In this document: positions 16,871 through 39,847 of the stretch, piece after piece
Numbering within the stretch: position 1 is the first letter of the stretch
Layout of the letters: every line of letters starts with the position of its first letter
DNA from: Candidatus Gottesmanbacteria bacterium
GTDB lineage: Bacteria > Patescibacteriota > Microgenomatia > UBA10105 > UBA927
NCBI GenBank assembly: GCA_963701185.1
Contig: OY969569.1
Span: forward strand, 245,735 to 309,734
Direction: 5' to 3'
Length of the DNA stretch: 64,000 nt
Program-made: the position numbers and the translations under genes
Notes under the pieces: model-generated
Database searches by the model: none
What the model was told of the DNA's origin: nothing
The model's input: the letters and a program-made list of their open reading frames with translations, nothing else

Positions 16871-16971
16871 GTGTCACCTCCTCTCAAATAAAGTTCCTAT
16901 AACCACTATATCAGATACTCATATGTGTCCACCACCGCCTACGAGGACTCTCCTCGTAGGTCTAAGGTATC

Positions 16972-17006: not shown

Positions 17007-17025
17007 TTGAATGAATAACGAAAAT

Positions 17026-17889: not shown

Positions 17890-17932
17890 TTATTTCACCT
17901 CCTTCCCTATAAATTTTTATAACCGATATTTC

Positions 17933-17963
17933 GAACAACCCATCGGATGTTTCCGGTGGGCTG
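17933..17963. repeat. conserved hairpin-forming intergenic motif, copy 3
   Basis: GAACAACCCATCGGATGTTTCCGGTGGGCTG, sitting 3' of minus gene 18000-18692. The stem CCCATCGG/CCGGTGGG is kept with a compensatory/wobble change relative to copy 2. Confidence 0.5.
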
Positions 17964-17999
17964 CATAAAGCAATGCTTTAACTGCAAAATCGTAGTTTA

Positions 18000-18692: not shown

Positions 18693-18730
18693 TTTTCACC
18701 TCCTCTCTTTTTTTAATTTGCACAAAAAAT

Positions 18731-25858: not shown

Positions 25859-25931
25859 GGGCGGTTAGCTCAGCTGGTAGAGCGTTTCATTGACATTGAA
25901 AAGGTCATAGGTTCAAGTCCTATACCGCCCA
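25859..25931 (+). tRNA. tRNA-Val (anticodon GAC)
   Basis: GGGCGGT-TA-GCTC-AGCTGGTA-GAGC-G-TTTCA-TTGACAT-TGAAA-AGGTC-ATAGG-TTCAAGT-CCTAT-ACCGCCC-A, a 73 nt cloverleaf with no encoded CCA. Confidence 0.85.
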
Positions 25932-25935
25932 CTGT

Positions 25936-26274
25936 ATGTGGAAGATTATTATTTGGCCATTATTCATTTTTGTACTGCACGGATATATTATTTACCTTTT
26001 TAAATTTCACTATCCGTCCGGACTTGGGCTTGAGCTTGCAGGCGCAGGTATCTTCGAAATTCTTCTTATTATGTCTCTCCTTTGTTATCTAGGTTTAATC
26101 GCACTGTACGTTCTAGTCCAAACATTTCGTAAAAAGGATATTACATTATGGTTTTGCATCTTTGTAGGCATACTATCCGTGCCAGTGAGTCTGTTTATGA
26201 CTCGATATATCACGTTATTGCGTATTGCAGATTACATTTTCAATTCGGATTGGTGGTGGCTGGGATTAATATAG
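25936..26274 (+). CDS. hypothetical membrane protein (low-GC)
   Basis: 112 aa with three hydrophobic helices and no recognisable motifs. It is the first gene of the low-GC block after tRNA-Val. Confidence 0.35.
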   Translation: MWKIIIWPLFIFVLHGYIIYLFKFHYPSGLGLELAGAGIFEILLIMSLLCYLGLIALYVLVQTFRKKDITLWFCIFVGILSVPVSLFMTRYITLLRIADYIFNSDWWWLGLI

Positions 26275-26279
26275 AGGTG

Positions 26280-28688
26280 CTACTGAATCGGATCCTCGAG
26301 AGGATTGTCGGTGTCAAATTTTATAGTTTTGATTTTTGGGAGACGGTTTTTTAATTGATATTCCTTCCACAGAATTTTTCCATTGGACAAAAATTGGGCA
26401 ACGATCAACCGTGTAGTGTCGGTTCCCGGCAGAACTACTAATTTATATTTTCCGGATTTTGGATTAGCAAAAACCTGCAGATTCCTTTCATCCTTCGTCA
26501 TGTGTCCTTCGGGATCTACGATCCAGAAGTCGGCCGGATACCCGATGACAAAAAGGCCGGATATCGGTGCGCGGGATGGAGGTTCCATGTTTGCCGTAAT
26601 AGATTGAATGGTTTGCGGTGCAGCCCCAAGAAACTCCAATACTTTTTCTATTCCCTGAGCCGATGACAGAAGATCCATATGACTGACGGATATGACGCGT
26701 GTATTATCGGCATCGGGAATTTCGCTGCTTGTCAAAAGGACGGTTCCATCGCCGTCCATCGTGGTCGTGCGTGAAATTGGTTTGCCATCTGCCCAATCAC
26801 CAGGAGAATCATGTTTATCTGCCGGGTTCACGCGATATCCGACAGTTGTTTCCTGCGCGTTTCCACGAAGAGTAGCAACTGTCGTATTATAAAAATTTGT
26901 AAAAGAAGATGTTAAAAAATTATTTTTAGCATTCATATCTAGATAATTTTTTAGTCCTGCATCGTCAGTAATGTAATTAAAAACCGGTAGCAGATTATTT
27001 ATGGACGGGAAATATGTCTGTATAACCTCTTTGTCGGTAGTTAGGTGCCGGATTCCACAATTCTTTTGGACTAACGTTAATAGGAATTTCCATCCGAGGT
27101 CTCCTTCCCAGATCTGACCCGCTTCCCACGTCGGATATGCCGCAATTGTCCCCAGATGAGGAGATCCAACGGATAAAAATTTCTCCATTTTATTTGTTGA
27201 CTGTTCCTGTGTTATGTATGACCGGGCTAGAAGCCCTCCCATGCTATGGCCGACGACCCCAACTTTTTCATGCCACCCGGGTGTCGCATTATTGATGAAA
27301 GAAGCCAGCGCCGGTTCGTTTTCGGCAACGGGCTTGCGCCAATCATACGGATAGAGCGTGGGAAGCCAGCCTGCTTTTGTCAGAGCGTCCAGGAGCGGAT
27401 TATAGACGGGGCGGGCAAGATGGAACAATGTCCACTCCCCCGTATAGTCATTGAGTTTGCAATTGATCAGTGCATCAGGATTCCAACTTGCCGTGACTCC
27501 GGGAATTACCACGATTTTCTTTGTCGGAGGAGGTGGAGGTGTGGGAGTGGGAGTTGCTGTGGGTGTGGGAGTTGGTGTTGGAGTGGGAGTAGAAGTTGGC
27601 GTTGGAGTGGGGAGCGGAGGCGCAGTCGGCACAGAAGCAGGATCCGGTGTAGGGAGTATTGACGCGCTCGCCGTCGCGTACCCTATGCGCCAATGGTACC
27701 CGTCGTACCCCGAATACCACATTTTAAGGATATCTTCTTTTAAAATCGTTGATGCGAACATATATGTTTGGTCGAATTTTCCGCCAGTGCCAGTTAATAC
27801 AGGATTAAGTTCGTTTGGCTTAACCCAATTAATACCATCAACGGAATAAGCATAGACAATTCGAGTTGGCATGTCTCCAGCAGCTGCCCCATACCACATA
27901 TGATAAATTCCACCAGAAAAGAGTACTGCGGGGAAACTTAGATTATTTAATTCCCAAATTGTAGTTGGGCTGAGAACCGGATTGTTATTGTTTTGTTTAA
28001 TCCAAATGACTCCATCAGTGGAAGTAGCGTATCCTATACGCCAAAAAGGACTACTACCGAGATCATTTTCGTTTGTAGCAGCGTACCACATATGATAAAC
28101 GCCGTTATTATAGATTATTGCTCTACCCCTTGCGGTGCCGCCCGCGTCCCATGATCCAGGAGTTCCAGTCATAACCCAATTTAATTTTGTCCAATTAAAG
28201 CCATCTTGAGATGTTGCATATCGAGTTCGGAAACGATCAGGCCCACTTTGCCAGTGGTCAGAATTTTGTGAGGTAAACCACATTTTATAAATAGAGCTGC
28301 TTGTATCGTATATAACGGGAGAATCGTTTGTTTCTTTTTCCCAACCGTCAGTTGAACCTGGGGGTATAATTGGTATAGGACTTCTTGTCCAATTAGTAAG
28401 ATCACCTGATGATGATGCGTATCCTATTTTCCAACCAGAACCACCATTTGCGGTATACCAAACGTTATAGATATTGTTTAATTTAAGTACAATAGGTTCA
28501 TCTACCTGATATGAATCCCATCCAGATAAACTTTCACTAAATATTGGATTGTCTGGATATTTTTGCCATTCGGATGCAAATACTTTTTGATTCAAAAAGA
28601 GGTAAAATAGAAAACCTAAAAGGCTAAAACAATAAAAAAGCTTAAAGCAGTATATAATATATTTCGACACTAGATAAACTAATATCAT
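26280..28688 (-). CDS. large secreted/membrane-anchored multidomain protein: GH43/GH130-type beta-propeller, Pro/Thr linker, alpha/beta-hydrolase (lipase-like GHSMGG)
   Basis: An N-terminal hydrophobic anchor. Five propeller-blade-like repeats (WKIGYASSSGDLTNW, TRYATSQDGFNW, FWRIGYATSTDGVIW, RIVYAYSVDGINW, HWRIGYAT). A PT linker PTPTPTSTPTPTPTPTPTATPTPTPPPPP. A lipase nucleophile elbow VGHSMGGLLA in a PGAP1/LCAT-like alpha/beta-hydrolase region. Confidence 0.6.
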   Translation of the reverse strand: MILVYLVSKYIIYCFKLFYCFSLLGFLFYLFLNQKVFASEWQKYPDNPIFSESLSGWDSYQVDEPIVLKLNNIYNVWYTANGGSGWKIGYASSSGDLTNWTRSPIPIIPPGSTDGWEKETNDSPVIYDTSSSIYKMWFTSQNSDHWQSGPDRFRTRYATSQDGFNWTKLNWVMTGTPGSWDAGGTARGRAIIYNNGVYHMWYAATNENDLGSSPFWRIGYATSTDGVIWIKQNNNNPVLSPTTIWELNNLSFPAVLFSGGIYHMWYGAAAGDMPTRIVYAYSVDGINWVKPNELNPVLTGTGGKFDQTYMFASTILKEDILKMWYSGYDGYHWRIGYATASASILPTPDPASVPTAPPLPTPTPTSTPTPTPTPTPTATPTPTPPPPPTKKIVVIPGVTASWNPDALINCKLNDYTGEWTLFHLARPVYNPLLDALTKAGWLPTLYPYDWRKPVAENEPALASFINNATPGWHEKVGVVGHSMGGLLARSYITQEQSTNKMEKFLSVGSPHLGTIAAYPTWEAGQIWEGDLGWKFLLTLVQKNCGIRHLTTDKEVIQTYFPSINNLLPVFNYITDDAGLKNYLDMNAKNNFLTSSFTNFYNTTVATLRGNAQETTVGYRVNPADKHDSPGDWADGKPISRTTTMDGDGTVLLTSSEIPDADNTRVISVSHMDLLSSAQGIEKVLEFLGAAPQTIQSITANMEPPSRAPISGLFVIGYPADFWIVDPEGHMTKDERNLQVFANPKSGKYKLVVLPGTDTTRLIVAQFLSNGKILWKEYQLKNRLPKIKTIKFDTDNPLEDPIQ
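27521..27645. repeat. GT-rich (plus-strand) hexanucleotide-like tandem repeat encoding the Pro/Thr linker
   Basis: The plus-strand run ggaggaggtggaggtgtgggagtgggagttgctgtgggtgtgggagttggtgttggagtgggagtagaagttggcgttggagtgggg is the reverse complement of the (ACN CCN)n Thr-Pro repeats. Confidence 0.6.
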
Positions 28689-28704
28689 AGTAAAAGGTGT
28701 TTGT

Positions 28705-30006
28705 ATGTACGATAGATTACATATTACTCAAGCTAAAATGATAGAAAACAGATTATTGAATAAATTATTTATTAATACTTCGAGCCAAATTGTTGCGAAA
28801 ATAGTAACAGTTATTTTGGGATTTTTGACGATTAGCCTTTTAACACGTTATCTCGGTGTGGAAAAGTATGGAATATATAATTTAGTTTTCGCGTATCTTG
28901 CATTTTTTGGAATTTTTGCTGATTTTGGCCTGCAGCTAACTCTTGTGCGAGATTTATCGAGTGACACAAAATCTGCCGAAAAGTTGAAATCCAGTTATTT
29001 TTCGCTTAAAGTGATTTTCACTTTTGTTTCAATATTGTTAGCTCTTATTACGCTCATATTTTTCCCTTACTCACAAACGATAAAGATGTCAATACTTGTT
29101 GGGTCCCTCGCAGTAGGAGCTGGTCAGATGAATGCCTACGGTGCTTCCGCACTTCAGTCAAAGGTTAAGCTCGATCTTGTCGCGCTTCTGGAAGTAATTA
29201 ATCGCATTGCGACAGTAATAGCAATCATTATTTTTGTTCTATTGCACCGTGGATTATATGCAATTATTCTTTCAGTTCTTATAGGTAACATACTTAGCAC
29301 GTTATTAAATATTTACTTAACACCTGATTTTTTCCGTTTAACTTCTATACCCTCGTTCGACTTGATTAAAAAAATAATTAAAGTTTCATTTCCCGTGGGT
29401 ATTACATCTTTGTTATCCGTACTTTATTTTAAAGTTGATACGTTGATGCTATCAGTGATGAAATCGACGGTTGACGTTGGTATATACAGTCTTTCCTACA
29501 AGTTGTTCGAAAATATTATAATGCTATGGCTGTTTTATATGGCTAGTTTATATCCTTTGATGGCTGGTTATATTAACAAGAATGATACTAAAAACCTTGT
29601 TTTAATACTAAAGACATCGATTATAGTACTTTCAGTATTTGTTTTAGTTATTCTATCAGTCGGATATTTCTTCGCGCCTCTCGTAATTGATATCCTTGGT
29701 GGGAAAAATTTTATTGAAAGCATTTTACCGTTTAGAGTATTATTGATTGCACTGCCTTTCGTGTTTATGAATAATATTTTCTATTACCTATTTCTATCGT
29801 TCTCGAAAATTAAGATAATATTCTGGGTTTTGATCAGTTCTTTAGTCATTAATTTATTAATTAATATGTTTCTTATTCCTCGTTATGGCTATATAGGAAC
29901 CAGCGCATCAACTGTGCTGACCGAGTTTTTAGTGAGTATACTCTATTGTGTATTTTTTCTGAAAATGAGGTTGCTTAGCTTTCAAACTGCCCCGAATTAT
30001 AAGTAA
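28705..30006 (+). CDS. polysaccharide/O-antigen flippase (Wzx, MOP superfamily)
   Basis: About 12 TM helices and a PST-family N-terminus (IVAKIVTVILGFLTISLLTRYLGVEKYGIYNLVFAYLAFFGIFADFGLQ). Very low GC. Confidence 0.7.
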   Translation: MYDRLHITQAKMIENRLLNKLFINTSSQIVAKIVTVILGFLTISLLTRYLGVEKYGIYNLVFAYLAFFGIFADFGLQLTLVRDLSSDTKSAEKLKSSYFSLKVIFTFVSILLALITLIFFPYSQTIKMSILVGSLAVGAGQMNAYGASALQSKVKLDLVALLEVINRIATVIAIIIFVLLHRGLYAIILSVLIGNILSTLLNIYLTPDFFRLTSIPSFDLIKKIIKVSFPVGITSLLSVLYFKVDTLMLSVMKSTVDVGIYSLSYKLFENIIMLWLFYMASLYPLMAGYINKNDTKNLVLILKTSIIVLSVFVLVILSVGYFFAPLVIDILGGKNFIESILPFRVLLIALPFVFMNNIFYYLFLSFSKIKIIFWVLISSLVINLLINMFLIPRYGYIGTSASTVLTEFLVSILYCVFFLKMRLLSFQTAPNYK

Positions 30007-30007
30007 T

Positions 30008-30739
30008 GTGAATCCATTCAAAATATTTAATAACAAGATATCATATGCCGGTATTTCCTCCGATATGGATAAGGAGTTTAATAGAATTTATAGCATTACG
30101 AAGAGATATACAATGACATCGATCGAGAGGATGTACTCAATGTATAAAGCAACAGAATATGTCATAAACGCTCGTATAGTCGGTGATGTAGTTGAATGCG
30201 GGATTTGGAGAGGTGGAAGTTCCATGATTGCAGCGATAACCATGCGGAAGCTACATAATTTGCAGAAGAAAATTTACCTATACGATACGTACGCCGGAAT
30301 GACTAAACCAAGCAAGTTTGATAAATCAGTAGGTAGTGATAACCACGCCACCGATTATTGGAATAAAAATAAATCTGGTGATATCAACAAATGGTGCTAT
30401 TCATCACTTGATGAAGTAAAATCCAACCTGTATAAAACTGGTTACCCTAAAAATAAACTACTGTTCATAGAAGGCGACGTTGAGAAAACTATACCGAAGA
30501 TTATACCGAAGAAAATCTCACTTTTGAGATTGGATACCGATTGGTATAAATCAACCTACCATGAGCTGAATTATTTGTATCCCTTACTAACGCCTGGCGG
30601 TGTACTGATTCTTGATGATTACGGTCATTGGCGAGGTGCGAGGAGGGCGACAGACGAGTATTTTAAAAGAAAGGGAATACATATTTTTTTAATCAGAATC
30701 GATTACACAGGAAGAATTGCAATAAAATATGGCAAATAA
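30008..30739 (+). CDS. TylF/MycF-family (macrocin-O-methyltransferase-like) sugar O-methyltransferase
   Basis: GTG start at 30008. VVECGIWRGGS, LRLDTDWYKSTYHELNYLYPLLTPGGVLILDDYG is the TylF-family (PF05711) pattern. Confidence 0.6.
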   Translation: MNPFKIFNNKISYAGISSDMDKEFNRIYSITKRYTMTSIERMYSMYKATEYVINARIVGDVVECGIWRGGSSMIAAITMRKLHNLQKKIYLYDTYAGMTKPSKFDKSVGSDNHATDYWNKNKSGDINKWCYSSLDEVKSNLYKTGYPKNKLLFIEGDVEKTIPKIIPKKISLLRLDTDWYKSTYHELNYLYPLLTPGGVLILDDYGHWRGARRATDEYFKRKGIHIFLIRIDYTGRIAIKYGK

Positions 30740-31394
30740 GAACATCTCATGGTTTTCGCCAGATAAGTTAATAAAGGACTTACAGTGGGATTATCTATCG
30801 GAAGCGTCTAAGTTTGCGCGAGGAGAGATGCTAGATGTAGGATGCGGTAAAATGCCTTATAAAGCTATTTTTATGCCTAGAGTTAGTAAATATATCGGCA
30901 TTGATAAGTATAACCGGGATGCTGACATTAAGAAAGACTTTTTGAAAGCAACGATTTTTGATAAATCGTTCGACACTGTACTATGTACACAAGTTTTAGA
31001 GCATATTCCTGAACCACAAAAGTTTTTAGAAAAGATTAACAAGGTGTTAAAAAAGAATGGCGTTCTTATTTTAACAGTGCCTTTCACGGGCCATCTACAC
31101 GAGGTTCCCCGAGACTATTACCGCTATACAAAGTATGGGCTTCGGTATATGCTCAAGAATGCGAATTTTAGAATCGTCTATATTAAGGCGGAAGGGAATT
31201 GGATTACCTCAATAGGACAGGAGATTATTTCTTACATCGAGCCTACGTTTAACCGTTTTTTACTTAAGTATCCCAAACGATTATTTCAATTAGGCGTTCT
31301 TTTACTGACTAAAGGTTTTTCAAAGCTGCCTGAACGATTTACTAAATCACAATATAGCGTTATTAACTATATTGTCGTTGCCAAAAAGCAGTAA
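30729..31394 (+). CDS. class I SAM-dependent methyltransferase
   Basis: Motif I MLDVGCGKMPY and a post-I FDTVLCTQVLEHI region, as in Methyltransf_11/23. Confidence 0.6.
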   Translation: MANKNISWFSPDKLIKDLQWDYLSEASKFARGEMLDVGCGKMPYKAIFMPRVSKYIGIDKYNRDADIKKDFLKATIFDKSFDTVLCTQVLEHIPEPQKFLEKINKVLKKNGVLILTVPFTGHLHEVPRDYYRYTKYGLRYMLKNANFRIVYIKAEGNWITSIGQEIISYIEPTFNRFLLKYPKRLFQLGVLLLTKGFSKLPERFTKSQYSVINYIVVAKKQ

Positions 31395-31397
31395 TCC

Positions 31398-32549
31398 ATG
31401 AAAATTTTGTTTATACGAAACGCTGATAGGTTTAGCGGTTCCGAAAAATATGATATTAACTTATTCTCGGAGTTTATCAAGTACCCTTCACTCAACGTAT
31501 ATTTTTTAACGAATTTAAAATTTTTTGCCAGACGAGCATCACAACTCGGAGTAACAACTAAGGTTATTTCATGGGGCTCAGAGGGAATTGGAACAAAAAA
31601 GCAATTACTATTAGCTCTTACAAAGCTCCCAATAATTCTTCCGAGATATATCTCGATAATTCATAAGTTTGAAAAGAATGGACGTTTTGATCTCATTTGT
31701 CTTCAATCGATGACAGAGAAGATATTTCTTACTCCGATACTTAAGATACAGGGATACAAGATACTTTGGACCGAACAAGGGCCAATTTATGCAACTCAGA
31801 TGTCAAAAGTAATTAAGTTTTTATATAGGCAGGTAAGCATTTTCGTCGATAAAATACTTGCGGTATCCAAGGATACAAAAAAGGATCTTATTCGTGGCGG
31901 AGTGTCTGCAAAAAAAATTACTGCGATTTATATTGGGATAGACATAAATAAATTTAAGCCGTTAAGTACGATTAAAATTAATACCTTAAAAAGGAGGTTT
32001 CAAATTAGTCGGAACTCTTTCGTTCTGGGTTATCTAGGGACAGTGACTGATGAAAAAGGCATAGAAGACTTTGTTTTAGTATCAAATATGTTGTTTAAAC
32101 AAGATAAGAATTTTCATTTTGTTATTATTGGGGATGGACCATTACTTCCATGGGTGAAACAGTCTATAAAAAGGTTAAAAATGACAAAGAATTACATGTG
32201 TAGTGGTTTTGTTGAAGATGTTACTAAATATTTAGGCGTTATAGATATATTATTTTTGCCCACACGTCATTACGAAGGTCTCCCTTTAGCCATATTAGAG
32301 GCACAATCAATGGGTAAGATAGTTATAACCAGCACGATGGGCGGCAATCATGAAATTGTTCAGAATGGTATAAATGGTTTTCTCTTTAGCGGCCTGAATA
32401 AAGCCTCCATTGTTAAACGTATCATCACCATGCGTCTTTCCAAATCAAACATGTTAGAGTTGAACAGGCAGGCGCGTAAGAATATAATGAAACGATTCAA
32501 TATTGAAGTTCAAAAGAAGAAATTCGTTCAATTTCTCCAAAACATATGA
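31398..32549 (+). CDS. glycosyltransferase family 4
   Basis: GT4 C-terminal motif EGLPLAILEAQSMGKIVITSTMGGNHEIVQNGINGFLF. Confidence 0.75.
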   Translation: MKILFIRNADRFSGSEKYDINLFSEFIKYPSLNVYFLTNLKFFARRASQLGVTTKVISWGSEGIGTKKQLLLALTKLPIILPRYISIIHKFEKNGRFDLICLQSMTEKIFLTPILKIQGYKILWTEQGPIYATQMSKVIKFLYRQVSIFVDKILAVSKDTKKDLIRGGVSAKKITAIYIGIDINKFKPLSTIKINTLKRRFQISRNSFVLGYLGTVTDEKGIEDFVLVSNMLFKQDKNFHFVIIGDGPLLPWVKQSIKRLKMTKNYMCSGFVEDVTKYLGVIDILFLPTRHYEGLPLAILEAQSMGKIVITSTMGGNHEIVQNGINGFLFSGLNKASIVKRIITMRLSKSNMLELNRQARKNIMKRFNIEVQKKKFVQFLQNI

Positions 32550-33625
32550 TTATCGGTGTAGATGCGGGGGCATTGTCCGTACGTGATGACCGCCTGAAGG
32601 TGGGCGTGTATCGCGTCACGTTAAATCTGTTGCGTGAGCTCGGGAAAATCGATACAACAAATGAATACCGCCTCTATACTTTTTTGCCTATTCCTGCGCC
32701 ACAGATGAAAGAATTCGGCCCGCGGATGAAAAACGTGATCGTGCGGCCTGTGATCGGCTGGTCCATGATCCAGGTACCCATTGAGCTGCGGCGCCATCCT
32801 GTTGATGTTTTTTTAGGGTTATCCCAAATGATACCGTTTTCCTCAGCCCGTAATATCGGTTTCGTATATGACCTCGGATTTTTGCGGTACCCTGGTGCAT
32901 ATCCCGGGTCGCTTGCACGTCTGGAGGCGCAGACAAGACAGTTGGTCAAGCGATCGGACCATATTATTACCATTTCCAAATCGGCTGAATCAGATATTGT
33001 CAACGCGTACGGAATAGACAAAAAACGCATAACGGTTAACTATCCCGGGATAGACCACAGGTTTACGGCACGCGGCGCCAAACATAAGGGAAAACCGTAT
33101 ATCCTGTATGTCGGTGCACTCAAGCGCGGGAAAAATATCCCGTTTGCTATCCGTGCATTTAAAAAATTTTTGGACGGCAGCAAGAAACAGTATGATTTTT
33201 TATTGGTCGGCGGTGATTATTGGGCAGACAAAACAATTCCGCACATAATAGAGGAGCTGGGATTGTGGGATAAGGTAAAATTGGCAGGGTTTGTTCCCGA
33301 TTCTGATTTGCCTACCTATTACCGCGGGGCCAGCGCGCTTTTTCTTACATCTCTCTGGGAGGGGTTTTGCCTACCCGCTACCGAAGCTATGAAAAGCGGC
33401 TGTCCCATCGTTTATGCCCGGACCGGATCCCTGCCGGAGATTGTTGGCGATGCAGGATTGATATTTGCCAAGGGAGACGAAACCGAAGCGGCCGACGCAC
33501 TTGCAAAGATCACTTCCACCGCTTTACTGCGGAAGCAATTGGTCAGGGCCGGCATAGAGCGGAGTAAGCAGTTTACCTGGCGTGCGTTTGCACAAAGCGT
33601 CCACCGCATCATTGCCAAATCATGA
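32546..33625 (+). CDS. glycosyltransferase family 4
   Basis: EGFCLPATEAMKSGCPIVYARTGSLPEIVGDAGLIF. GC returns to about 50% from here on. Confidence 0.75.
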   Translation: MIIGVDAGALSVRDDRLKVGVYRVTLNLLRELGKIDTTNEYRLYTFLPIPAPQMKEFGPRMKNVIVRPVIGWSMIQVPIELRRHPVDVFLGLSQMIPFSSARNIGFVYDLGFLRYPGAYPGSLARLEAQTRQLVKRSDHIITISKSAESDIVNAYGIDKKRITVNYPGIDHRFTARGAKHKGKPYILYVGALKRGKNIPFAIRAFKKFLDGSKKQYDFLLVGGDYWADKTIPHIIEELGLWDKVKLAGFVPDSDLPTYYRGASALFLTSLWEGFCLPATEAMKSGCPIVYARTGSLPEIVGDAGLIFAKGDETEAADALAKITSTALLRKQLVRAGIERSKQFTWRAFAQSVHRIIAKS

Positions 33626-34698
33626 AAGTCGCCGTCGTCCGCGGAAAATTTCTGAACAAATACGAAATGCAGTTTTTTGAGCCGCTTGTCAATCGCTTTG
33701 ATATCACTGCATTCGGATCACTGACAAGCTTCCATGACCGGTTCCGCTTTCCCGCGGTCAAGCTTCTTTCACCCATGGATATCCCTGATTTCCCGTACAA
33801 AATGCCGGTATTAAACAGATTGTTTATCGATGCGCATTATTTGTTTGGATTGGAAGGGAAGCTCCGCGGATTTGACCTTGTGCACACAGCGGAAACCTAT
33901 TTCCATTACACCCAACAATGCCTGAATGCCAAAAAGAAAGGGTATGTCAAAAAAGTCATTGCCACGGTATTGGAAAATATTCCCTTTAATAACGAAGGCA
34001 TTCCCGGCAGACGTGCATTTAAAGCGCGCGCAAGACAGGAGCTTGACCACATGATCGCATTGACCAATAAGACGAAGGCAGCACTGCTTCTTGAAGGAGC
34101 TGACCCTAAAAAGATTACCGTCATCAGCCATTTTATCGATACAAAAAGATTTTCTCCGGGCAGAAGTCGAATTCACAAAAAACTCGTTATACTTTTTGTC
34201 GGAAGGCTGGAATGGTATAAGGGAATATTTGATTTTATACAAGCTGCGGAGATGCTTCGCGCCGAAGGCTTCCACCTAACGTTTCGCGTGATCGGGACGG
34301 GCAGTGAAGCAAATAAAATTCCCCAGTGGATTGAAAAACGACATGCGATGTATGACGAGATGCCGTCTGTGTATAACGGCGCTGATATATTTATTGCCCC
34401 CAGCAAGCCCACACCGACGTATGAAGAGCAGTACTGTACGGCGCTTCTTGAGGCGCAGGCTTCAGGCCTGGCCATTGTGACCACCAGAAGCGGCGGCATA
34501 CCGGAGAATATCGGAGACGCCGGTATCGTGGTCGAGCCCGGGGATGTGTCGGCGATTGCACAAGCGGTAAAAAGCTATATATTAAACCCTCAGAAGCGAC
34601 TGGTATATGGTGTTGCTGCGCGTGAACGGGCAATACGCGTGCATGACGCGAGGATAGGCGCAAAAAAACTTGCGGGTCTCTACCGCTCCCTGTTTTAA
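33622..34698 (+). CDS. glycosyltransferase family 4
   Basis: EEQYCTALLEAQASGLAIVTTRSGGIPENIGDAGIVVEPGD. Confidence 0.75.
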   Translation: MKVAVVRGKFLNKYEMQFFEPLVNRFDITAFGSLTSFHDRFRFPAVKLLSPMDIPDFPYKMPVLNRLFIDAHYLFGLEGKLRGFDLVHTAETYFHYTQQCLNAKKKGYVKKVIATVLENIPFNNEGIPGRRAFKARARQELDHMIALTNKTKAALLLEGADPKKITVISHFIDTKRFSPGRSRIHKKLVILFVGRLEWYKGIFDFIQAAEMLRAEGFHLTFRVIGTGSEANKIPQWIEKRHAMYDEMPSVYNGADIFIAPSKPTPTYEEQYCTALLEAQASGLAIVTTRSGGIPENIGDAGIVVEPGDVSAIAQAVKSYILNPQKRLVYGVAARERAIRVHDARIGAKKLAGLYRSLF

Positions 34699-35717
34699 GG
34701 CCGCAACAGCAAGAAGGAAATAATGAGCGATGCATTGACAAGAGTCAGTGGGATGACAACAATCGTGAGGAAGTAAAATTGGGTCCATTTGTAATGAGCC
34801 AGCCAGGTAAAAATAGGAGCAATGCCGAAGGCAAGAATCGGCAAGGTACTCACAAACATCCTGCCGCTGTAGGAAGCGCCCTGCCACCACGTACTCCAAC
34901 TGGCTACGGTGTACAGTTCCAGAAGAAAGACAAGAAGCATCATCCGTCTTTTTTTCGTGATGAGTCCGATTGTGCCAAGGAGTGTTATCGGAGTCCACAG
35001 ATATAAGCCGTTTCGTAATCCAAACAGGACTCCGAGTATGTGCGGTCGGAAAAAGTTGAAACCTTCATGTAATAAATAGGGACTTATCCAAAACCTGCCC
35101 GCGGTATGTTGCCAAGCAAGGAATTGTGGTGAAAATACAAGAAGAAAGCCGGCAATAATCAATACAATATTCTTCTTCGTGATGGAAGGAAGAAGAAGTA
35201 TTGTATAGATGAGGTCCTGGGTACGCATCAAACCAAGGAGGCCGAGTGCGGCACCGATACTAAACCAGGATTTTTGCTTTTGCAGCAAAAGCGAGAGGAA
35301 TACGACGGCCGCAAAAAAAGTAAGTGCGTGGGAATTGACCACATCTATTGATCCATAAAAGAGAAGATTACTTGCTCCGGCAATTGAGGCAACTGCCATA
35401 ATGCTTACGGTTTCGCTGAAATATTTTAGCAACAGGCGCCATAAGAGGAGGAGCGAAAATATCGTTGCCAGTACACTGGTGAAACCGACGACTATTTCAT
35501 TGCGGGTCAGAAGATATGCCGGAGTCCAAAATAGCGCAGGTCCTACTGAATATTTACTCGGTTGCAGAGTAAGCCATCCGTAATAATATGTGCCGTCGCC
35601 GTAGACGGTTTTATTAAGATACGCGGCGTGGGCAAAGAATCCGGTCAGGTAAACCGTGCAGATGCAAAGAAAAATCGACAGCGGCGATATCTTAGTCAAA
35701 AGCTTCATTACCGGCAA
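34695..35717 (-). CDS. polytopic integral membrane protein, possible GT-C-type glycosyltransferase/glycan polymerase
   Basis: 340 aa with at least 9 predicted TM helices and no soluble domain. It sits among glycosyltransferase genes. Confidence 0.35.
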   Translation of the reverse strand: MPVMKLLTKISPLSIFLCICTVYLTGFFAHAAYLNKTVYGDGTYYYGWLTLQPSKYSVGPALFWTPAYLLTRNEIVVGFTSVLATIFSLLLLWRLLLKYFSETVSIMAVASIAGASNLLFYGSIDVVNSHALTFFAAVVFLSLLLQKQKSWFSIGAALGLLGLMRTQDLIYTILLLPSITKKNIVLIIAGFLLVFSPQFLAWQHTAGRFWISPYLLHEGFNFFRPHILGVLFGLRNGLYLWTPITLLGTIGLITKKRRMMLLVFLLELYTVASWSTWWQGASYSGRMFVSTLPILAFGIAPIFTWLAHYKWTQFYFLTIVVIPLTLVNASLIISFLLLRP

Positions 35718-35732: not shown

Positions 35733-36518
35733 GTGGTTAGTGCAATTGTATTATCCCATAATGACCAGGATTCGGTGGTGCGGACCCTCGCGAGCCTTTT
35801 CTGGTGTGATGAAATAATCGTTATTGACGATTTCTCCACGGACGAAACGGTTTCCCGGGCAAAAAAATTTACGCCAAACATTTACCGGCATCATTTACAC
35901 GATGATTTTTCCGCGCAGAGGAATTTCGGGTTGACAAAAGTCGGAGGGCCCGCCTCGACTCGCGGCGAGCCGACGCGAGGCGGGGAGTGGGTTCTTTTTG
36001 TCGATAGCGATGAAGTCGTTTCAGCCGAGCTGGCTGATGAAATTAAAAAATCATTGGAAATTGACTGTGCGGGATTTTACATGAAACGTCAGGATTGGCT
36101 TTTCGGAAAACCGCTTGGTCACGGGGAAACAGGTAAAGTGCGTTTATTACGGTTGGCAAAAAAGAATGCAGGGAAATGGGAGAGAACAGTTCATGAAGTA
36201 TGGCATGTCAGCGGGATGACCGGTGAGCTTGATCATCCGCTTGATCATTTCCCCCACCAATACGTCGCACAATTTATAAGTGACATAAATCACTATTCAA
36301 CCCTCAACGCGCGGTATTTGTATTCAAAAAATGTGCATGCATTCTGGTGGCATATCATTGCGTATCCCAGTCTCAAATTTTTTGTGGATTATATCTGGTA
36401 TTTAGGATTCCTGGACGGCACTGCTGGGGCAGTTGTGGCTCTTATGATGAGTTTTCATTCATTTTTGTCCCGTGCAAAACTCTGGCTGTTATGGCACAAA
36501 CGAGAAAAAACATCCTAA
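35733..36518 (+). CDS. glycosyltransferase family 2
   Basis: GTG start. The GT2 N-terminus AIVLSHNDQDSVVRTLASL, then IIVIDDFSTDET and the DxD-like FVDSDEVV. Confidence 0.65.
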   Translation: MVSAIVLSHNDQDSVVRTLASLFWCDEIIVIDDFSTDETVSRAKKFTPNIYRHHLHDDFSAQRNFGLTKVGGPASTRGEPTRGGEWVLFVDSDEVVSAELADEIKKSLEIDCAGFYMKRQDWLFGKPLGHGETGKVRLLRLAKKNAGKWERTVHEVWHVSGMTGELDHPLDHFPHQYVAQFISDINHYSTLNARYLYSKNVHAFWWHIIAYPSLKFFVDYIWYLGFLDGTAGAVVALMMSFHSFLSRAKLWLLWHKREKTS

Positions 36519-37906
36519 TACTTTCCGTTTTCTATCTTATTTCCCGCTGCATCTTTTTAACGAGATACCCGGTTTTTAATGATGAGTCGATATATCTTCG
36601 GGAAGCCTGGATAATGACACACGTTCCGCATCAACTCTGGTTTTCGCTTTCGGACACCGGAAAACAGCCGCTTCTCATCTGGCTCTATGGACTTGCCTGG
36701 CAGGTTATCGGGGATCCGCTCCTTTCCGGGCGCCTGGTGTCCGTGTTCATCGGTTTGACGACGGTATGGGCAGTGTATCTCTTGGGAGGTTGGACTGCGG
36801 GTATTCTTCTGGTTGCGGCTCCGATGTTTGTATTTTTTGACCGGCTTGCATTGGCGGACAGCGCACTGGCGGCGGTGTTTGCATGGCTTTTGGTGGTATT
36901 GGTGAAGCTTCGGAAACGGAATGTCTGCCGTAGCGCAGTTTTTGCCGGCATATTGGTAGGGATAAGTTTTTGGATTAAGTCAACGGGATTTCTTTTCATC
37001 CTGATAACCGTCACAGAATTTGCATATCTCTGGTGGAGTCAAAAAAGGGACATTTCGACCATCCTGGCACTGGTAGTTTTTATTGCTGTCGCCAGTTGGA
37101 TCGGGTTCCCACTCTTTATCCGGCCGGAGGCACTTCGAATTTTTCAAACGGCCCATCTGTATACATATTCTGTTAAAGAACTTATGGCACTTCGTTTTGT
37201 AAACGTGGGACGCAATATTCTGCACGCGTTTATTGACTACACGGCGTATATATCTCCGATTGTTGTCTTAGCATGTATTGTGTCTTTGCGGCATGTGTCC
37301 CACAAAAAACGAATTCTTATAACTGCATGGCTCTTGTCGTTGGCTGTGGTTGTTGTCTTTGGTATAAGTGTTCATGCGCGGTATATACTTTTTACGGCCG
37401 TTCCCGTTATTGTCCTGTCGTCTTTTGTACTCTCCGCCCGCAAGATTCTTCTCGGTATTACCATGGCGTGTATGACCGTTCTGTCCGCAATTCTCATTAT
37501 AGACCCGCCCACATTTTTTCATATATTTCCCGGAACTCATCTGCAGGGTGAATCGTACGGATATGTGGACGGCTGGCCGTCGGGGTATGGTACGAAAGAA
37601 GCATTTGCGGCGATTAATGCGGACCGGCAGGGTGAGCCTGCGATCATTGCAATCCGTTTTGACTCCGGAAATCCGGAGGATGCTATGATTGTGTATGCGA
37701 AAGAGTATCGCAATCTTGCGGTGAAATATCTGGACCCCTGGCAGCCGGAGGCACGCGCAGTTCTTATGGCATCACGGACGCAGCGTGTCTATTTTGTGAC
37801 ACGGCAGGGGCAGTATAATGGATTTGAGCGGTATCTTATCCCGATGGCGCAATTTCTGAAACCGGGCGGTAAAGACAAAGTAGAACTTTTTCGTGTGCGC
37901 ATATGA
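36491..37906 (+). CDS. GT-C family glycosyltransferase (ArnT/PMT-like, dolichyl-phosphate-mannose-protein mannosyltransferase fold)
   Basis: The internal ATG at 36491 overlaps the GT2 end. Polytopic N-terminus with LTRYPVFNDESIYL (DE loop motif) and a soluble C-terminal domain. Confidence 0.55.
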   Translation: MAQTRKNILILSVFYLISRCIFLTRYPVFNDESIYLREAWIMTHVPHQLWFSLSDTGKQPLLIWLYGLAWQVIGDPLLSGRLVSVFIGLTTVWAVYLLGGWTAGILLVAAPMFVFFDRLALADSALAAVFAWLLVVLVKLRKRNVCRSAVFAGILVGISFWIKSTGFLFILITVTEFAYLWWSQKRDISTILALVVFIAVASWIGFPLFIRPEALRIFQTAHLYTYSVKELMALRFVNVGRNILHAFIDYTAYISPIVVLACIVSLRHVSHKKRILITAWLLSLAVVVVFGISVHARYILFTAVPVIVLSSFVLSARKILLGITMACMTVLSAILIIDPPTFFHIFPGTHLQGESYGYVDGWPSGYGTKEAFAAINADRQGEPAIIAIRFDSGNPEDAMIVYAKEYRNLAVKYLDPWQPEARAVLMASRTQRVYFVTRQGQYNGFERYLIPMAQFLKPGGKDKVELFRVRI

Positions 37907-39000
37907 AGCTGCTAAAATTACTATTTTTGGCCAGTTTACTATTGGGTCAGATCGGCGGTCTATCGCCACTGGCGGGTGTTGTTATCTATATTCATGATAT
38001 CCTTCTGGCGTTTCTTGTCGCTTTTTCAATAAAAAAAATCCACCGGGGAAAATTATTTGTTCCGATTGCCCTTTTCATTGTTTCCTGTCTCCTGTCTCTT
38101 GCCGCAAATAGCACCCGCTTTTCCCTGCCTGAATTATTGACGGGGAGTTTGTATCTCGTCCGCTGGACGTTGTATGCAGCTCTTTATTTCGTGGTCAGTG
38201 ATAATCGTGTTGATGCCAAGTTCTGGCTCCGCAACCTGTTTGCTGTCGGCGTCGGATTTGGAATCATAGGTCTTGTGCAATTTTTCCTGTATCCGGATTT
38301 ACGGAATCTCATGTATCTCGGGTGGGACCCGCATTATTATCGTTTGTTCTCGACGCTTTTGGATCCGAACTTTATGGGGATTATTCTGGTATTCACCATA
38401 CTTATAGGTTTCAGCCTGAAGATAAAACACCGAGTGTGGTTTATATCCGGTCAATTGATTTCGTTTATCGCACTGCTGTTGACGTATTCGCGCAGCAGCT
38501 TTCTTGCATTAGGGGTAGCAATCGTTGTATGGGCTCTTGTGCAAAAACGCTGGACGTTGTGTATCGTTTTAACCGCGTTTGCAGGGCTCGTTCTCATTCT
38601 CCCTCACGGGAACACGCTGAATTTGCTTCGGCCGGATTCCACCTTCGCCCGCGTGGGGAACTGGCAGGAAAGTTTCACAATGATTGCCAAAGCGCCGGTA
38701 TTCGGATACGGGTTCGATACGCTCCGATACGTACGTCCCGTGACCGGAGACTTTGTGTCAAAAGCCGCCTCAGGCGCGGACAGCAGTCTTTTGTTTGTGT
38801 GGGCAACGTCCGGCCTTTTTGGGCTGGCTGCGTATGTGTATCTGTTGATTTCAATGATCAGGATAGGGAAGAAATCCGTTTTATACCTTGCCTGTGTTGC
38901 GGCACTTGTTGTTCACAGTTTATTTGTCAACAGCCTGTTCTATCCGTGGGTGATGATCTGGATGTGGGTGCTTACCGGTGCCGCTATTTATGATACGTGA
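37903..39000 (+). CDS. O-antigen ligase/polymerase-like (Wzy_C) membrane protein
   Basis: Polytopic protein. LLTYSRSSFLALGVAIVVWAL resembles the Wzy_C signature, with a large periplasmic loop. Confidence 0.6.
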   Translation: MKLLKLLFLASLLLGQIGGLSPLAGVVIYIHDILLAFLVAFSIKKIHRGKLFVPIALFIVSCLLSLAANSTRFSLPELLTGSLYLVRWTLYAALYFVVSDNRVDAKFWLRNLFAVGVGFGIIGLVQFFLYPDLRNLMYLGWDPHYYRLFSTLLDPNFMGIILVFTILIGFSLKIKHRVWFISGQLISFIALLLTYSRSSFLALGVAIVVWALVQKRWTLCIVLTAFAGLVLILPHGNTLNLLRPDSTFARVGNWQESFTMIAKAPVFGYGFDTLRYVRPVTGDFVSKAASGADSSLLFVWATSGLFGLAAYVYLLISMIRIGKKSVLYLACVAALVVHSLFVNSLFYPWVMIWMWVLTGAAIYDT

Positions 39001-39697
39001 CCTTGCGCTGGATGGTCGTCTGATTTCCGGAAGCGTCAGTTGCTACAATCTTAAGAATATTATCCCCCTCGTTTAACGGATAACTGTAGCTGAAGGAATT
39101 GTCGGTTTTAATAACCACCATCCGGTCGTTAATCGTGACCGTGACATTATCGTCCGTCATGCCCGTTACCGTGACCGCATTGGGATCTCCGGTGACCGTC
39201 GAATTATCCGTCGGGTCGCTCACGACGAGTTTTGGCGGAGTGTTGCCGTAATTAACGGACACGATGTTGGACAGGTCGCTCACATTCCCTTTCGTATCCG
39301 TCAGTTTTGCGCTGATGGTATTTGAGCCGTTCACCAGCGGAATGCCTGACAGGATAAACGTTCCGTCCTTCCGGACAGCGGTCTGTTTGAATTCCTTACC
39401 ATTGACATACAGGATGACGGTAAGCTCCGCCTGTCCCTTACCGGTAGCGGAAATAGTTGCGCTGTTGGTGGCGCTCGTCGGCGGGTCGAGAGTCGGCGGC
39501 AGGATGATGGTTTGCGCCTGTTGCGTGGTTGCCGGTGAGCCGCCCCTCAATTTTTCCACCAACAGACTAAATCCGATAAGCGCTTTCACGCCGAAGGCGA
39601 GAATGAGGACGAATATGCCGATGATGCCGACAATAGCAAGAACGAGCCGACGCTTTTCTTTGCGGTCCGACACTCTCGATAATCTTGAATATGCCAT
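38984..39697 (-). CDS. membrane-anchored extracellular protein with Ig-like/beta-sandwich repeats, hypothetical
   Basis: N-terminal TM LVLAIVGIIGIFVLILAFGV, then Thr/Asn-rich beta-strand repeats (VTVTG, VTVTIND). Confidence 0.4.
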   Translation of the reverse strand: MAYSRLSRVSDRKEKRRLVLAIVGIIGIFVLILAFGVKALIGFSLLVEKLRGGSPATTQQAQTIILPPTLDPPTSATNSATISATGKGQAELTVILYVNGKEFKQTAVRKDGTFILSGIPLVNGSNTISAKLTDTKGNVSDLSNIVSVNYGNTPPKLVVSDPTDNSTVTGDPNAVTVTGMTDDNVTVTINDRMVVIKTDNSFSYSYPLNEGDNILKIVATDASGNQTTIQRKVTYHK

Positions 39698-39700
39698 ATG

Positions 39701-39771
39701 AGCCTCCTGTCAGAATCGAACTGACATCTACGGTTTACGATACCGCTGCTCTGCCACTGAGCTAAGGAGGC
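39701..39771 (-). tRNA. tRNA-Thr (anticodon CGT)
   Basis: Reverse complement reads GCCTCCT-TA-GCTC-AGTGGCA-GAGC-A-GCGGT-ATCGTAA-ACCGT-AGAT-GTCAG-TTCGATT-CTGAC-AGGAGGC-T, 71 nt. Confidence 0.8.
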
Positions 39772-39776
39772 AGTTG

Positions 39777-39847
39777 AGCGGGTGAAGGGAATCGAACCCT
39801 CGTCTCATCCTTGGGAAGGACGTATTCTGCCATTGAACCACACCCGC
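39777..39847 (-). tRNA. tRNA-Gly (anticodon CCC)
   Basis: Reverse complement reads GCGGGTG-TG-GTTC-AATGGCA-GAAT-A-CGTCC-TTCCCAA-GGATG-AGAC-GAGGG-TTCGATT-CCCTT-CACCCGC-T. It ends 5 nt upstream of tRNA-Thr, so the two are probably co-transcribed. Confidence 0.8.

Follow-up and report, generated by a model that had tools for sequence, protein, structure and literature searches.

The rfb O-antigen cluster of Salmonella enterica carries a central low-GC region of 28-37% against 51-52%, and why the genes of O-antigen clusters are low in GC was left open in the same study (Reeves et al. 2013, PMC3715488). Replacement flexible genomic islands, such as the O-chain cluster of Pelagibacterales, occur in all strains at the same position with the same kind of function coded by different genes, are defined by strain-level replacement within species, and are thought to be exchanged through homologous recombination in their flanks (Lopez-Perez et al. 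2014, PMC4033161; PMC11898729). We analyzed a glycan locus that resembles both of these systems and that, like tRNA-integrated islands, has a compositionally atypical block with surface-related cargo near a tRNA gene. It lies in a 64-kb stretch of chromosome, hereafter the window, whose LepB relatives place it in Candidatus Gottesmanbacteria (CPR/Patescibacteria).

The initial annotation had interpreted the low-GC block as an island that had inserted immediately 3' of tRNA-Val. Our results indicate that it is probably long-resident: an AT-rich segment with the variable "specificity" genes of a surface-glycan operon that is itself ancestral, and tRNA-targeted integration made no contribution to it. 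This segment would consist of the genes for Wzx, a TylF-type O-methyltransferase, a second SAM methyltransferase and GT4a, would reach into the start of the divergent lipase gene, would have been in position before the divergence of five species or more, and would be transcribed together with the normal-GC genes downstream of it, to which its translation would be coupled. The contents of the slot between tRNA-Val and GT4b would turn over like O-antigen or capsule "replacement" cassettes, most likely via recombination in the conserved flanks.

The glycan operon occupies the interval between tRNA-Val and tRNA-Thr (Table 1). The order IleRS-FtsW-MT-L27-ParB-LepB on one side of tRNA-Val and glycan genes on the other is kept in nearly all loci from about 35 relatives (labeled L below), with tRNA-Val adjoining lepB in 34 of the 35 scanned, and L037, L082 and L094 likewise have tRNA-Thr as their distal edge.

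Table 1. Features of the glycan locus, in positions of the window
Feature	Position	Strand	GC	Basis and remarks
tRNA-Val(GAC)	25859-25932	+		ARAGORN; proximal-end landmark of the locus
ORF112, 112-aa small membrane protein	25936-26274	+	0.369	Hydropathy (3 hydrophobic segments)
802-aa propeller-lipase protein	26280-28688	-	0.437	Pfam LCAT 44.8 bits, weak GH130
Wzx-type (MOP superfamily) lipid-linked oligosaccharide flippase	28705-30006	+	0.327	PF01943 106 bits (cutoff 28.2), PF13440, MatE
TylF/MycF/NovP-family sugar O-methyltransferase, 243 aa	30008-30739	+	0.366	PF05711 137 bits (cutoff 23)
MT, class-I SAM-dependent methyltransferase (Methyltransf_23/11)	30729-31394	+	0.365	Pfam
GT4a, GT4 glycosyltransferase	31398-32549	+	0.341	PF00534, PF13692; last low-GC gene
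GT4b, GT4 glycosyltransferase	32546-33625	+	0.499	Pfam; first normal-GC gene
GT4c, GT4 glycosyltransferase	33622-34698	+	0.480	Pfam
340-aa polytopic membrane protein, weakly PMT_2-like	34695-35717	-		PF13231 24.6 bits, below 26.1 cutoff; 8 hydrophobic stretches
GT2 glycosyltransferase	35733-36518	+		PF00535 47.7 bits
Polytopic PMT_2-like (GT-C-like) membrane protein	36347-37906	+		PF13231 25.5 bits, just below cutoff; hydropathy
Wzy_C-family protein	37903-39000	+		PF04932 58.1 bits (cutoff 31.7)
Ig-like/glucodextranase-B-domain surface protein	38984-39697	-		PF09136, Big_6, Big_13; N-terminal hydrophobic segment; distal locus edge
tRNA-Thr(CGT) and tRNA-Gly(CCC)	39700-39847	-		ARAGORN; distal landmark of the locus

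Pfam scans that took in all ORFs of at least 80 aa between 25.9 and 39.7 kb, together with hydrophobic segments, bear out the six gene families named earlier for the block, from ORF112 to GT4a. ORF112 itself gave no match in Pfam or NCBIfam; its ortholog in L082 is 78% identical, and in L005 and L015 weak homologs directly precede the lipase gene. The 802-aa protein combines an N-terminal hydrophobic segment, a GH130-like β-propeller, a Pro/Thr linker and an LCAT/PGAP1-type α/β hydrolase domain with a GHSMGG elbow; it matches a 1,2-β-oligomannan phosphorylase in the PDB (E=1.3e-10) and is predicted to be secreted or anchored. Its homologs (28-59% identity) are found beside tRNA-Val in at least 19 loci, all of them with the G/A-H-S-x-G-G motif, and the gene is a conserved resident of the family with intermediate GC.

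The low-GC operon segment begins with Wzx, which has 12 hydrophobic stretches and orthologs of 66-87% identity in L082, L083, L002 and L017, where its GC is 0.33-0.37. The TylF-type protein finds its best PDB matches in MycF (205 residues aligned) and NovP, and it retains the GDVxExGxWRGG, LRxDxDxY and DDY motifs, with LRLDTDWY aligned to LRMDGDSY of MycF and ILDDY to IIDDY; from the MycF and NovP structures we take these motifs to serve SAM and metal binding. The methylated surface glycan suggested in the initial annotation is a reasonable inference given this retention, and family membership and operon context point to a sugar hydroxyl as the probable methyl acceptor. The gene is present in the window, L082, L083, L084 and L085 and missing from L002 and L017, and all TylF matches above 70% identity with an examined context belong to syntenic relatives. 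Orthologs of MT in four relatives are 74-83% identical, and most other loci have distant low-GC methyltransferase relatives directly downstream of the lipase gene. GT4a belongs to a subfamily of about 55 clusters with graded identities of 36-86%, after which come generic GT4 proteins at 30% or less; a search among 5.8 billion proteins returned no closer homolog outside this graded series. The three sampled members of the subfamily all lie in homologous loci, and the subfamily appears to be restricted to this lineage.

Downstream, the gene content is as had been annotated: two GT4 genes, one GT2, two weak PMT_2 (GT-C-like) matches and Wzy_C, which brings the glycosyltransferases above Pfam cutoffs to three GT4 and one GT2. 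From Wzx through GT4c, stop codons adjoin or overlap the start codons of the following genes. GT4b is a family-wide conserved anchor with orthologs in most loci (43-83% identity), and orthologs of GT4c are 58-84% identical. The 340-aa membrane protein, possibly a glycosyltransferase of the GT-C fold, has orthologs in L082, L083, L002 and L039. The GT2 ORF as listed has 261 aa, against about 248 aa in its orthologs, and runs into the beginning of the ORF listed after it; that next ORF starts too early, its L082 ortholog having 471 aa, and its L092 ortholog matches both PMT and PMT_2. The Wzy_C protein is predicted to be of the O-antigen polymerase, ligase or O-oligosaccharyltransferase type, three activities indistinguishable by sequence; L037, L039, L082, L083 and L094 keep its gene at the distal end of their loci, and the Ig-like surface protein has orthologs in L037, L039, L082 and L094. 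The 64-kb window encodes no initiating phosphoglycosyl transferase besides MraY of the dcw cluster (1634-2797, the sole PF00953 match) and has no Bac_transf match, so that the pathway is incomplete as read; the priming transferase may be encoded elsewhere in the genome.

The GC drop that had been noted by eye proved to be the most extreme in the window when computed. GC from 25,933 to 32,549 is 0.380 versus 0.484 in the rest, the minimum among all 6.6-kb windows, and the anomaly is strongest at 28,001-32,000, a stretch that among 4-kb windows combines minimum GC (0.350) with maximum dinucleotide δ* (93, where the median is 35) and maximum tetranucleotide distance (3.94 versus 1.25). The drop is thus confirmed, but not a uniform 6.6-kb extent starting at the nucleotide after the tRNA: a fit with two change points places the trough at about 27,720-32,560 (GC 0.352, flanks 0.48-0.49), and 25,933-28,300 averages 0.446, the Pro/Thr-linker part of the lipase gene reaching 0.50-0.56. 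The trough starts inside the lipase gene, away from the tRNA; it takes in the N-terminal-coding third of that gene (about 27.7-28.7 kb) and then Wzx, TylF, MT and GT4a. Each of these four genes has a GC of 0.33-0.37 and a GC3 of 0.32-0.385, and all codon positions are shifted toward AT (GC1 0.36-0.42, GC2 0.29-0.35); the flanking genes have a GC of 0.46-0.52 and a GC3 of about 0.46-0.64. The right boundary is exact, falling at the 4-nt ATGA overlap (32,546-32,549) between the TGA stop of GT4a and the ATG of GT4b.

The same arrangement and the same step in composition are found in other species. Gene order in L082 and L083 is identical to that of the window from ORF112/lipase (ORF112/lipase-Wzx-TylF-MT-GT4) to Wzy_C, and L002 and L017 have Wzx-MT-GT4a-GT4b, without TylF and without the lipase gene. 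In all four, GC is 0.33-0.38 from Wzx to GT4a and jumps to 0.48-0.51 at GT4b. The slot from tRNA-Val, or from the lipase gene, to GT4b is at the same chromosomal position in about 25 loci and holds at least three arrangements upstream of GT4b in the genus-level clade, with many more across the family: Wzx-TylF-MT-GT4a as in the window, FkbM-type MT-Wzx-GT2 in L091, another GT4 followed by GT2 in L090, and, in more distant loci, Zn-ribbon methyltransferases of about 290 aa, GT2 genes and other low-GC methyltransferases and glycosyltransferases. These comparisons are all between species, the closest relatives being 80-85% identical in housekeeping proteins; a scan of metagenomes yielded short contigs only.

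Synonymous divergence (NG86 dS) of the window from L082, L083, L002 and L017 ranges from about 0.5 to more than 2, in flanking and low-GC genes alike, and the order of the relatives by identity is the same in the matrices of housekeeping, low-GC and distal genes. Equilibrium GC3 from polarized synonymous rates (GC3*), a parsimony estimate at nearly saturated sites, is 0.37-0.40 in the block (CI 0.30-0.47), compared with 0.52-0.55 in the distal glycan genes and 0.44-0.58 in housekeeping genes, which implies that the block sits near an AT-rich equilibrium of its own. A step in GC3* from about 0.37-0.40 in the segment to about 0.53 in the next gene would thereby have persisted in five or more species whose synonymous divergence is saturated. 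Raw changes from AT to GC in the block outnumber those from GC to AT by a ratio of 1.2-2.0, a mild upward drift, so that some slow amelioration may be under way.

These data bear on three other ways in which a low-GC stretch could have come to lie beside tRNA-Val. A recent or remnant integrase-type island, inserted site-specifically at the tRNA-Val 3' end and spanning 25,933-32,549, would fit the atypical composition that starts near the tRNA, and the slot in L093 is occupied by a restriction-modification pair together with an FtsK/SpoIIIE-like ATPase, cargo which indicates that foreign DNA is able to land there. Yet of the marks of such islands the block shows only atypical composition. No integrase, recombinase or transposase was detected among the Pfam-scanned ORFs between 25.9 and 39.7 kb, in agreement with the remark in the initial annotation that none was visible; the 23-nt and 15-nt segments of the tRNA-Val 3' end occur once in the window even at 2-3 mismatches, so there is no direct repeat of the kind that the annotation suggested looking for near 32.5 kb; and no repeat family in the window involves 25.86-25.93 kb. 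Furthermore, the tRNA-proximal lipase gene is a resident throughout the family, the trough begins inside that gene and not at the tRNA, and the right edge falls within an operon. Nor is the block present or absent as a unit, since relatives differ by single genes or modules and only the distant L037, with a minimal locus, has no cassette. Conservation of the block at this tRNA in relatives had been named beforehand as arguing against recent acquisition, and block and GC step are found together in no fewer than four other species with saturated dS (L082, L083, L002 and L017). We therefore regard tRNA-Val as a conserved landmark and not an attachment site, and insertion there as very improbable; the earlier suggestion that the island might be old or a remnant comes closer to the truth, but the block is better understood as belonging to an ancestral operon. 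Less probable still, to the point of being negligible, is an artifact of assembly or binning that fused a contig from a low-GC organism with the Gottesmanbacteria contig: the source is a metagenome-assembled genome and composition changes abruptly at 32.55 kb, but the same junctions recur in independent assemblies that differ in sample and source (NCBI GCA_040960375.1, JGI 3300035659, ENA and Logan contigs, L002 and L017), and overlapping reading frames span the GC boundary.

More weight is due to an ancient import, in which the Wzx-MT-GT4a genes of the clade's ancestor were replaced by the version of a low-GC CPR relative and the AT-richness is a scar that slowly fades by amelioration, and even so we consider it unlikely. 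Low-GC relatives with a homologous operon do exist, as in L092 (locus GC 0.34; MT-Wzx-MT-GT4a-GT2-GT4b-GT4c...PMT-Wzy_C), but identity to the window is no higher there for low-GC genes (43-49%) than for normal-GC genes (37-61%), and no donor-like close homolog emerged from the TylF matches or, for GT4a, from the search of 5.8 billion proteins. The operon order of L092 and its even identity to the window over both sets of genes (37-61%) speak for an ancestral operon. The AT shift at all codon positions is what a long stay in an AT-rich genome would produce, and the excess of AT-to-GC changes points the same way, as do some GT4a homologs of host-typical GC, such as that of L006 (0.50), which indicate that this protein family needs no AT-rich coding. 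Set against this, GC3* in the block is close to the current GC3 of 0.32-0.34 and well below that of the neighbors, and GC3 remains at 0.29-0.40 in five lineages whose pairwise dS is about 1 or higher. The genes thus seem to have been AT-rich in a steady state over the long term, which fits better than the fading scar of an import.

Gene families, synteny, age and composition are what the data show directly; for the product of this operon we infer a pathway, its substrates, order of steps and acceptor included. A priming transferase encoded elsewhere would start an oligosaccharide linked to polyprenyl phosphate, which GT4a, GT4b, GT4c and possibly GT2 would extend in the cytoplasm; the two methyltransferases would O-methylate its sugars, Wzx would flip the unit outside, and the Wzy_C protein would polymerize it or transfer it to an acceptor. 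The PMT_2-like membrane proteins might attach further residues on the outer side of the membrane, for which GT2 may make a polyprenyl-P-sugar.

Like Wzx/Wzy O-antigen clusters, the locus is fixed between conserved flanks, its wzx, glycosyltransferase and sugar-modification genes lie 10-20 GC points below the genome (here 33-37% versus 47-50%), GC rises toward the conserved end, and gene content varies between relatives. It has Wzx, Wzy_C and several glycosyltransferases, and differs in that the Wzy_C gene is conserved and of normal GC, that priming transferase and nucleotide-sugar genes are absent from the locus, and that the low-GC genes are seen to persist through species-level divergence. 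CPR hosts presumably have neither outer membrane nor LPS, so the product would not be an O antigen. With the replacement ("glycotype") islands of aquatic bacteria it shares a surface-glycan slot at one position between conserved flanks, whose genes differ between relatives, in part without homology, while belonging to one functional class; here, however, species are compared, and one arrangement has been stably inherited across three to five of them. From tRNA-integrated islands it differs further in that close relatives show no empty site and that its boundaries do not fall at the tRNA. The 243-aa methyltransferase resembles MycF, TylF and NovP, which act on macrolide and aminocoumarin deoxysugars, in its PF05711 match and its SAM-binding and Asp-rich metal motifs, but here its gene belongs to a polysaccharide operon.

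Low GC beside a tRNA is easily mis-called as a mobile island, and here it marks the variable core of a conserved surface-glycan operon, a feature of an ordinary kind in a little-studied phylum. Hardly any work exists on the surfaces of CPR/Patescibacteria, through which these bacteria probably attach to host cells; they carry, at a fixed site, a diversifying glycan locus of O-antigen-like design, whose methyltransferases are expected to yield methylated sugars. The sharp and stable GC step within a single operon can be analyzed with better substitution models as the number of genomes grows, and the five-species comparison offers a clean natural experiment on the cause of the lasting AT-richness of glycan-processing genes. 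It is possible, although we hold the idea only tentatively and somewhat doubt it, that active maintenance, not passive inheritance from a donor, accounts for the AT-richness of the Wzx-methyltransferase-GT4 segment. Low GC in glycan "specificity" genes would then be a selected or locally enforced property, caused for example by slow translation of processing enzymes or binding of nucleoid proteins, and the question that Reeves and colleagues left for O antigens would be answered in a tractable CPR comparative system. Between the window and L082, the dS of Wzx, TylF and GT4a is 0.52-0.56, below the 0.8-1.65 of the flanks, which could reflect a later exchange of part of the cassette.

A low-GC stretch of glycan genes beside tRNA-Val had been noted and taken for an island inserted immediately 3' of the tRNA. 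Our analysis partly confirmed the observation but does not support its reading as an inserted island. This is a known kind of locus, of which a little-known phylum here supplies a new and well-replicated example; the literature searched contained no earlier account of such a locus from Gottesmanbacteria or Patescibacteria. Pfam agreed with the initial gene calls between both tRNA landmarks. The remainder of the window is core chromosome, with the dcw cluster from FemAB to FtsZ, two GH130 genes, IleRS, FtsW, L27, ParB and LepB upstream, and PolX, LemA, MurT/GatD, GatA, GatB, DnaE, ATP synthase and ArgG downstream. FtsA is represented by two overlapping ORFs (7818-8663 and 8611-9108, spanning 7818-9108), both with FtsA domain matches, which may reflect a frameshift, a sequencing error or a true split gene.

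Features of the glycan locus, in window coordinates
Feature	Position	Strand	Basis
tRNA-Val(GAC)	25859-25932	+	ARAGORN
Membrane ORF, 112 aa (ORF112)	25936-26274		
802-aa protein (lipase gene): weak GH130-type propeller + LCAT/PGAP1-type hydrolase	26280-28688	-	Pfam
Wzx	28705-30006		Pfam
TylF-family O-methyltransferase (TylF)	30008-30739		Pfam
Class-I SAM methyltransferase (MT)	30729-31394		Pfam
GT4 (GT4a)	31398-32549		Pfam
Beyond GT4a: two GT4 (GT4b, GT4c), PMT_2-like membrane protein (-), GT2, second PMT_2-like protein, Wzy_C, Ig-like surface protein			Pfam
tRNA-Thr, tRNA-Gly, tRNA-Asp	39.7-40.6 kb	-	ARAGORN

The compositional anomaly is real. Against a mean GC of 0.473 for the window, the four block genes Wzx, TylF, MT and GT4a have GC values of 0.327-0.366 and GC3 values of 0.32-0.385, compared with 0.46-0.52 and about 0.46-0.64 in flanking genes, and their AT shift is present at all three codon positions. 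The segment 28001-32000 is the most deviant 4-kb window in GC, in Karlin's dinucleotide delta* (93 versus a median of 35) and in tetranucleotide distance (3.94 versus 1.25). The shape of the anomaly is not as first described, however, since a two-change-point likelihood fit placed the trough at about 27,720-32,560 (GC 0.352, versus 0.491 and 0.477 on either side), so that its left edge falls within the lipase gene, some 1.8 kb away from the tRNA, and not at the tRNA itself. The lipase gene is intermediate in GC (0.437), and its middle, coding for a Pro/Thr linker, reaches 0.50-0.56. The right edge is the GT4a/GT4b junction, where the TGA of GT4a overlaps the ATG of GT4b (ATGA, 32546-32549). 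Amino-acid bias of membrane proteins was considered as the cause of the low GC and rejected, since AT-richness is just as strong in GT4a and the soluble methyltransferases, and GC3 is low too. A second low-GC patch, at 16300-18700, has the second most deviant dinucleotide signature of the window (delta* 87) and carries two minus-strand ORFs, 17026-17889 (no Pfam match) and 18000-18692 (DUF642), with GC of 0.39-0.40 and GC3 of 0.26-0.29.

Insertion at tRNA-Val is not supported. No integrase, recombinase or transposase was matched by Pfam among the ORFs of 25.9-39.7 kb; the direct repeat of the tRNA 3' part that such an event might leave is absent from the window, where the last 23 nt and 15 nt of tRNA-Val are single copy even with 2-3 mismatches allowed; and a generic repeat search of 25.7-40 kb returned no family involving the tRNA. 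A search for att sites in L093, a relative bearing restriction-modification genes, found none either. In addition, resident DNA abuts the tRNA and the block is syntenic in relatives. A LepB scan of species-representative genomes yielded 80 loci, the best 38 or so of which belonged to Candidatus Gottesmanbacteria or to Patescibacteria MAGs with uninformative labels. tRNA-Val adjoins lepB in 34 of the 35 loci scanned, and nearly all loci have IleRS-FtsW-methyltransferase-L27-ParB-LepB on one side and glycan genes on the other. In at least 19 loci the propeller-lipase gene follows the tRNA directly or after one other gene, at 28-59% identity, which indicates that the sequence bordering the tRNA 3' end is old resident DNA. 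Homologs of the lipase, found in loci L004-L039, keep an invariant G/A-H-S-x-G-G nucleophile elbow (GHSMGG in the window) and mostly a signal-peptide-like N-terminus. At the distal end, GT4b, GT2, Wzy_C, the Ig-like protein and tRNA-Thr recur (L037, L039, L082, L094), and the distant L037 is a minimal locus, tRNA-Val-GT4b-GT2-Wzy_C-Ig-tRNA-Thr. Two variations of this arrangement were observed. The syntenic tRNA is tRNA-Val(CAC) instead of tRNA-Val(GAC) in L009, L010, L024 and L038, a difference at a fixed site that suggests an anticodon switch or replacement of the tRNA gene; and in L003, L012, L018, L024 and L038 lepB is oriented as parB, opposite to the window, with the lipase gene beyond lepB; the lepB-tRNA-Val segment has undergone a small inversion there.

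The block itself occurs in further species. Two loci reached through the closest TylF homologs, L082 (GCA_040960375.1) and L083 (JGI 3300035659), are identical to the window in gene order from ORF112/lipase through Wzy_C, and two additional relatives, L002 and L017, have Wzx-MT-GT4a-GT4b without TylF or the lipase gene. The initial annotation stated that the same block at this tRNA in all relatives would argue against recent horizontal acquisition, and these four do carry it there. In all of them GC is 0.33-0.38 from Wzx to GT4a (GC3 0.29-0.40) and jumps to 0.48-0.51 in GT4b, a step that recurs on the short contigs L084-L086 and L093. Housekeeping proteins are 80-85% identical between the window and these relatives and Nei-Gojobori dS is 0.8-2.7 in flank genes, so that the relatives are different species; dS of the low-GC genes is 0.5 to more than 2. 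Identity matrices of housekeeping, low-GC and distal genes all rank the relatives alike (L082 closest, L083 next, then L002 and L017), and together with the dS values this indicates that the block is older than the splits between these species and diverged alongside its hosts. The dS values that separate the window from L082 form a mosaic (Wzx 0.52, TylF 0.56, MT 1.21, GT4a 0.55, GT4b 1.30) in which Wzx, TylF and GT4a fall below the flanks and below the MT between them; this may reflect later exchange of cassette parts or stronger codon constraint.

An older foreign origin was weighed against an ancestral operon. In a search of 5.8 billion proteins, GT4a belonged to a narrow subfamily of about 55 clusters, graded from 86% to 36% identity, beyond which lay generic GT4 proteins at 30% or less; the three members looked up all come from homologous glycan loci, and lepB and tRNA-Val are visible alongside two of them. 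TylF matches above 70% identity, among those whose context was examined, were all syntenic relatives, and below 70% the matches, from many phyla, levelled off in a broad 53-60% plateau with no obvious donor. The related locus L092, with an overall GC of 0.34, has the order MT-Wzx-MT-GT4a-GT2-GT4b-GT4c...GT2-PMT-Wzy_C. When it is compared with the window, the genes of the window's low-GC block (Wzx 47%, MT 49%, GT4a 43% identical) do not exceed the others in identity (GT4b 44%, GT4c 61%, PMT 37%, GT2 45%, Wzy_C 38%). The operon order across the GC step is therefore ancestral, and the low-GC genes are not a recent acquisition from an L092-like donor. The AT-richness could still be the fading scar of an import, which is a live rival. 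We polarised synonymous third-position changes by three-taxon parsimony. The raw ratio of AT-to-GC to GC-to-AT changes was ambiguous, at 1.2-2.0 for the block and 0.6-1.9 for its flanks, and raw counts were superseded by per-site rates with bootstrap intervals. Within the block, AT sites of the closest triplet changed to GC at about half the rate seen in the flanks. The equilibrium GC3 implied by these rates (GC3*) was 0.37-0.40 for the block (bootstrap 0.30-0.47) versus a current 0.32-0.34, compared with 0.52-0.55 in distal glycan genes and 0.44-0.58 in housekeeping genes. This contrast is probably conservative because parsimony, in AT-rich sequence, usually errs towards too many AT-to-GC changes, but we treat it as suggestive only, as sites are near saturation. 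Together with stable GC3 in five lineages, these values lead us to prefer a long-term steady state to the fading scar of an import. Beside the glycan operon of L092 lies a 1565-aa fusion of two GT2 domains and one GT4 (L092:598-5295).

The interval upstream of GT4b varies among relatives. A metagenome scan with GT4b gave only six short contigs, which were informative on cassette variants. Some contigs with a GT4b N-terminus 89-91% identical to that of the window, and so as close to it as L082 and L083, have a GT2 of 286-288 aa ahead of GT4b in place of GT4a; L091 combines this GT2 with an FkbM-type methyltransferase and a Wzx 62% identical, and L090 has a different GT4 (GC 0.30). In more distant loci the gene following the lipase is usually a Zn-ribbon and SAM methyltransferase of about 290 aa (GC 0.26-0.34), only 25-33% identical to the MT of the window, and in nearly all loci some part of the interval is a low-GC patch. 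In L093 (Logan SRR31418087_852), positions 950-8300, between tRNA-Val and the MT-GT4a genes, encode an N6/N4 DNA methylase and an MvaI/BcnI endonuclease (GC 0.30-0.33), a NUDIX protein and a 276-aa FtsK/SpoIIIE-like ATPase, with neither an integrase match nor a tRNA repeat in this segment. Such turnover is the behaviour of O-antigen-type loci (PMC3715488) and of "replacement flexible island" loci (PMC4033161, PMC11898729), unlike that of an integrase-borne island.

The stops and starts from Wzx to GT4c abut or overlap, which makes a single transcript of all six genes, crossing the GC step, probable; a scan of 25.7-40.6 kb for promoters and terminators gave counts at shuffle expectation and so does not bear on where the operon begins or ends. 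The gene families are observed, and from them we infer the pathway steps. An oligosaccharide would be built on polyprenyl phosphate by the GT4 enzymes, perhaps also GT2, its sugars O-methylated by the TylF-type enzyme, which retains the MycF/NovP motifs GDVxExGxWRGG, LRxDxDxY and DDY, and by the class-I methyltransferase. Wzx would flip the unit, which the Wzy_C protein would either polymerise or pass on to an acceptor, wall or protein. Residues may be added outside the membrane by the pair of PMT_2-like polytopic proteins, whose Pfam scores are just below cutoff. MraY is the only priming transferase in the window, and the one required may be encoded elsewhere in the genome. No locus protein reaches an NCBIfam equivalog cutoff, so the specific sugar or linkage cannot be named. 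The conserved neighbour of the operon is a secreted GH130-like propeller joined by a Pro/Thr linker to an LCAT/PGAP1-type lipase; CPR cells are lipid-auxotrophic, and a surface lipase or acyltransferase in them could merit study. Its GH130-like N-terminal domain has stand-alone counterparts in the window, where two GH130 genes of the beta-mannoside phosphorylase type, one with a duplicated domain, immediately follow the dcw cluster (10241-13376).
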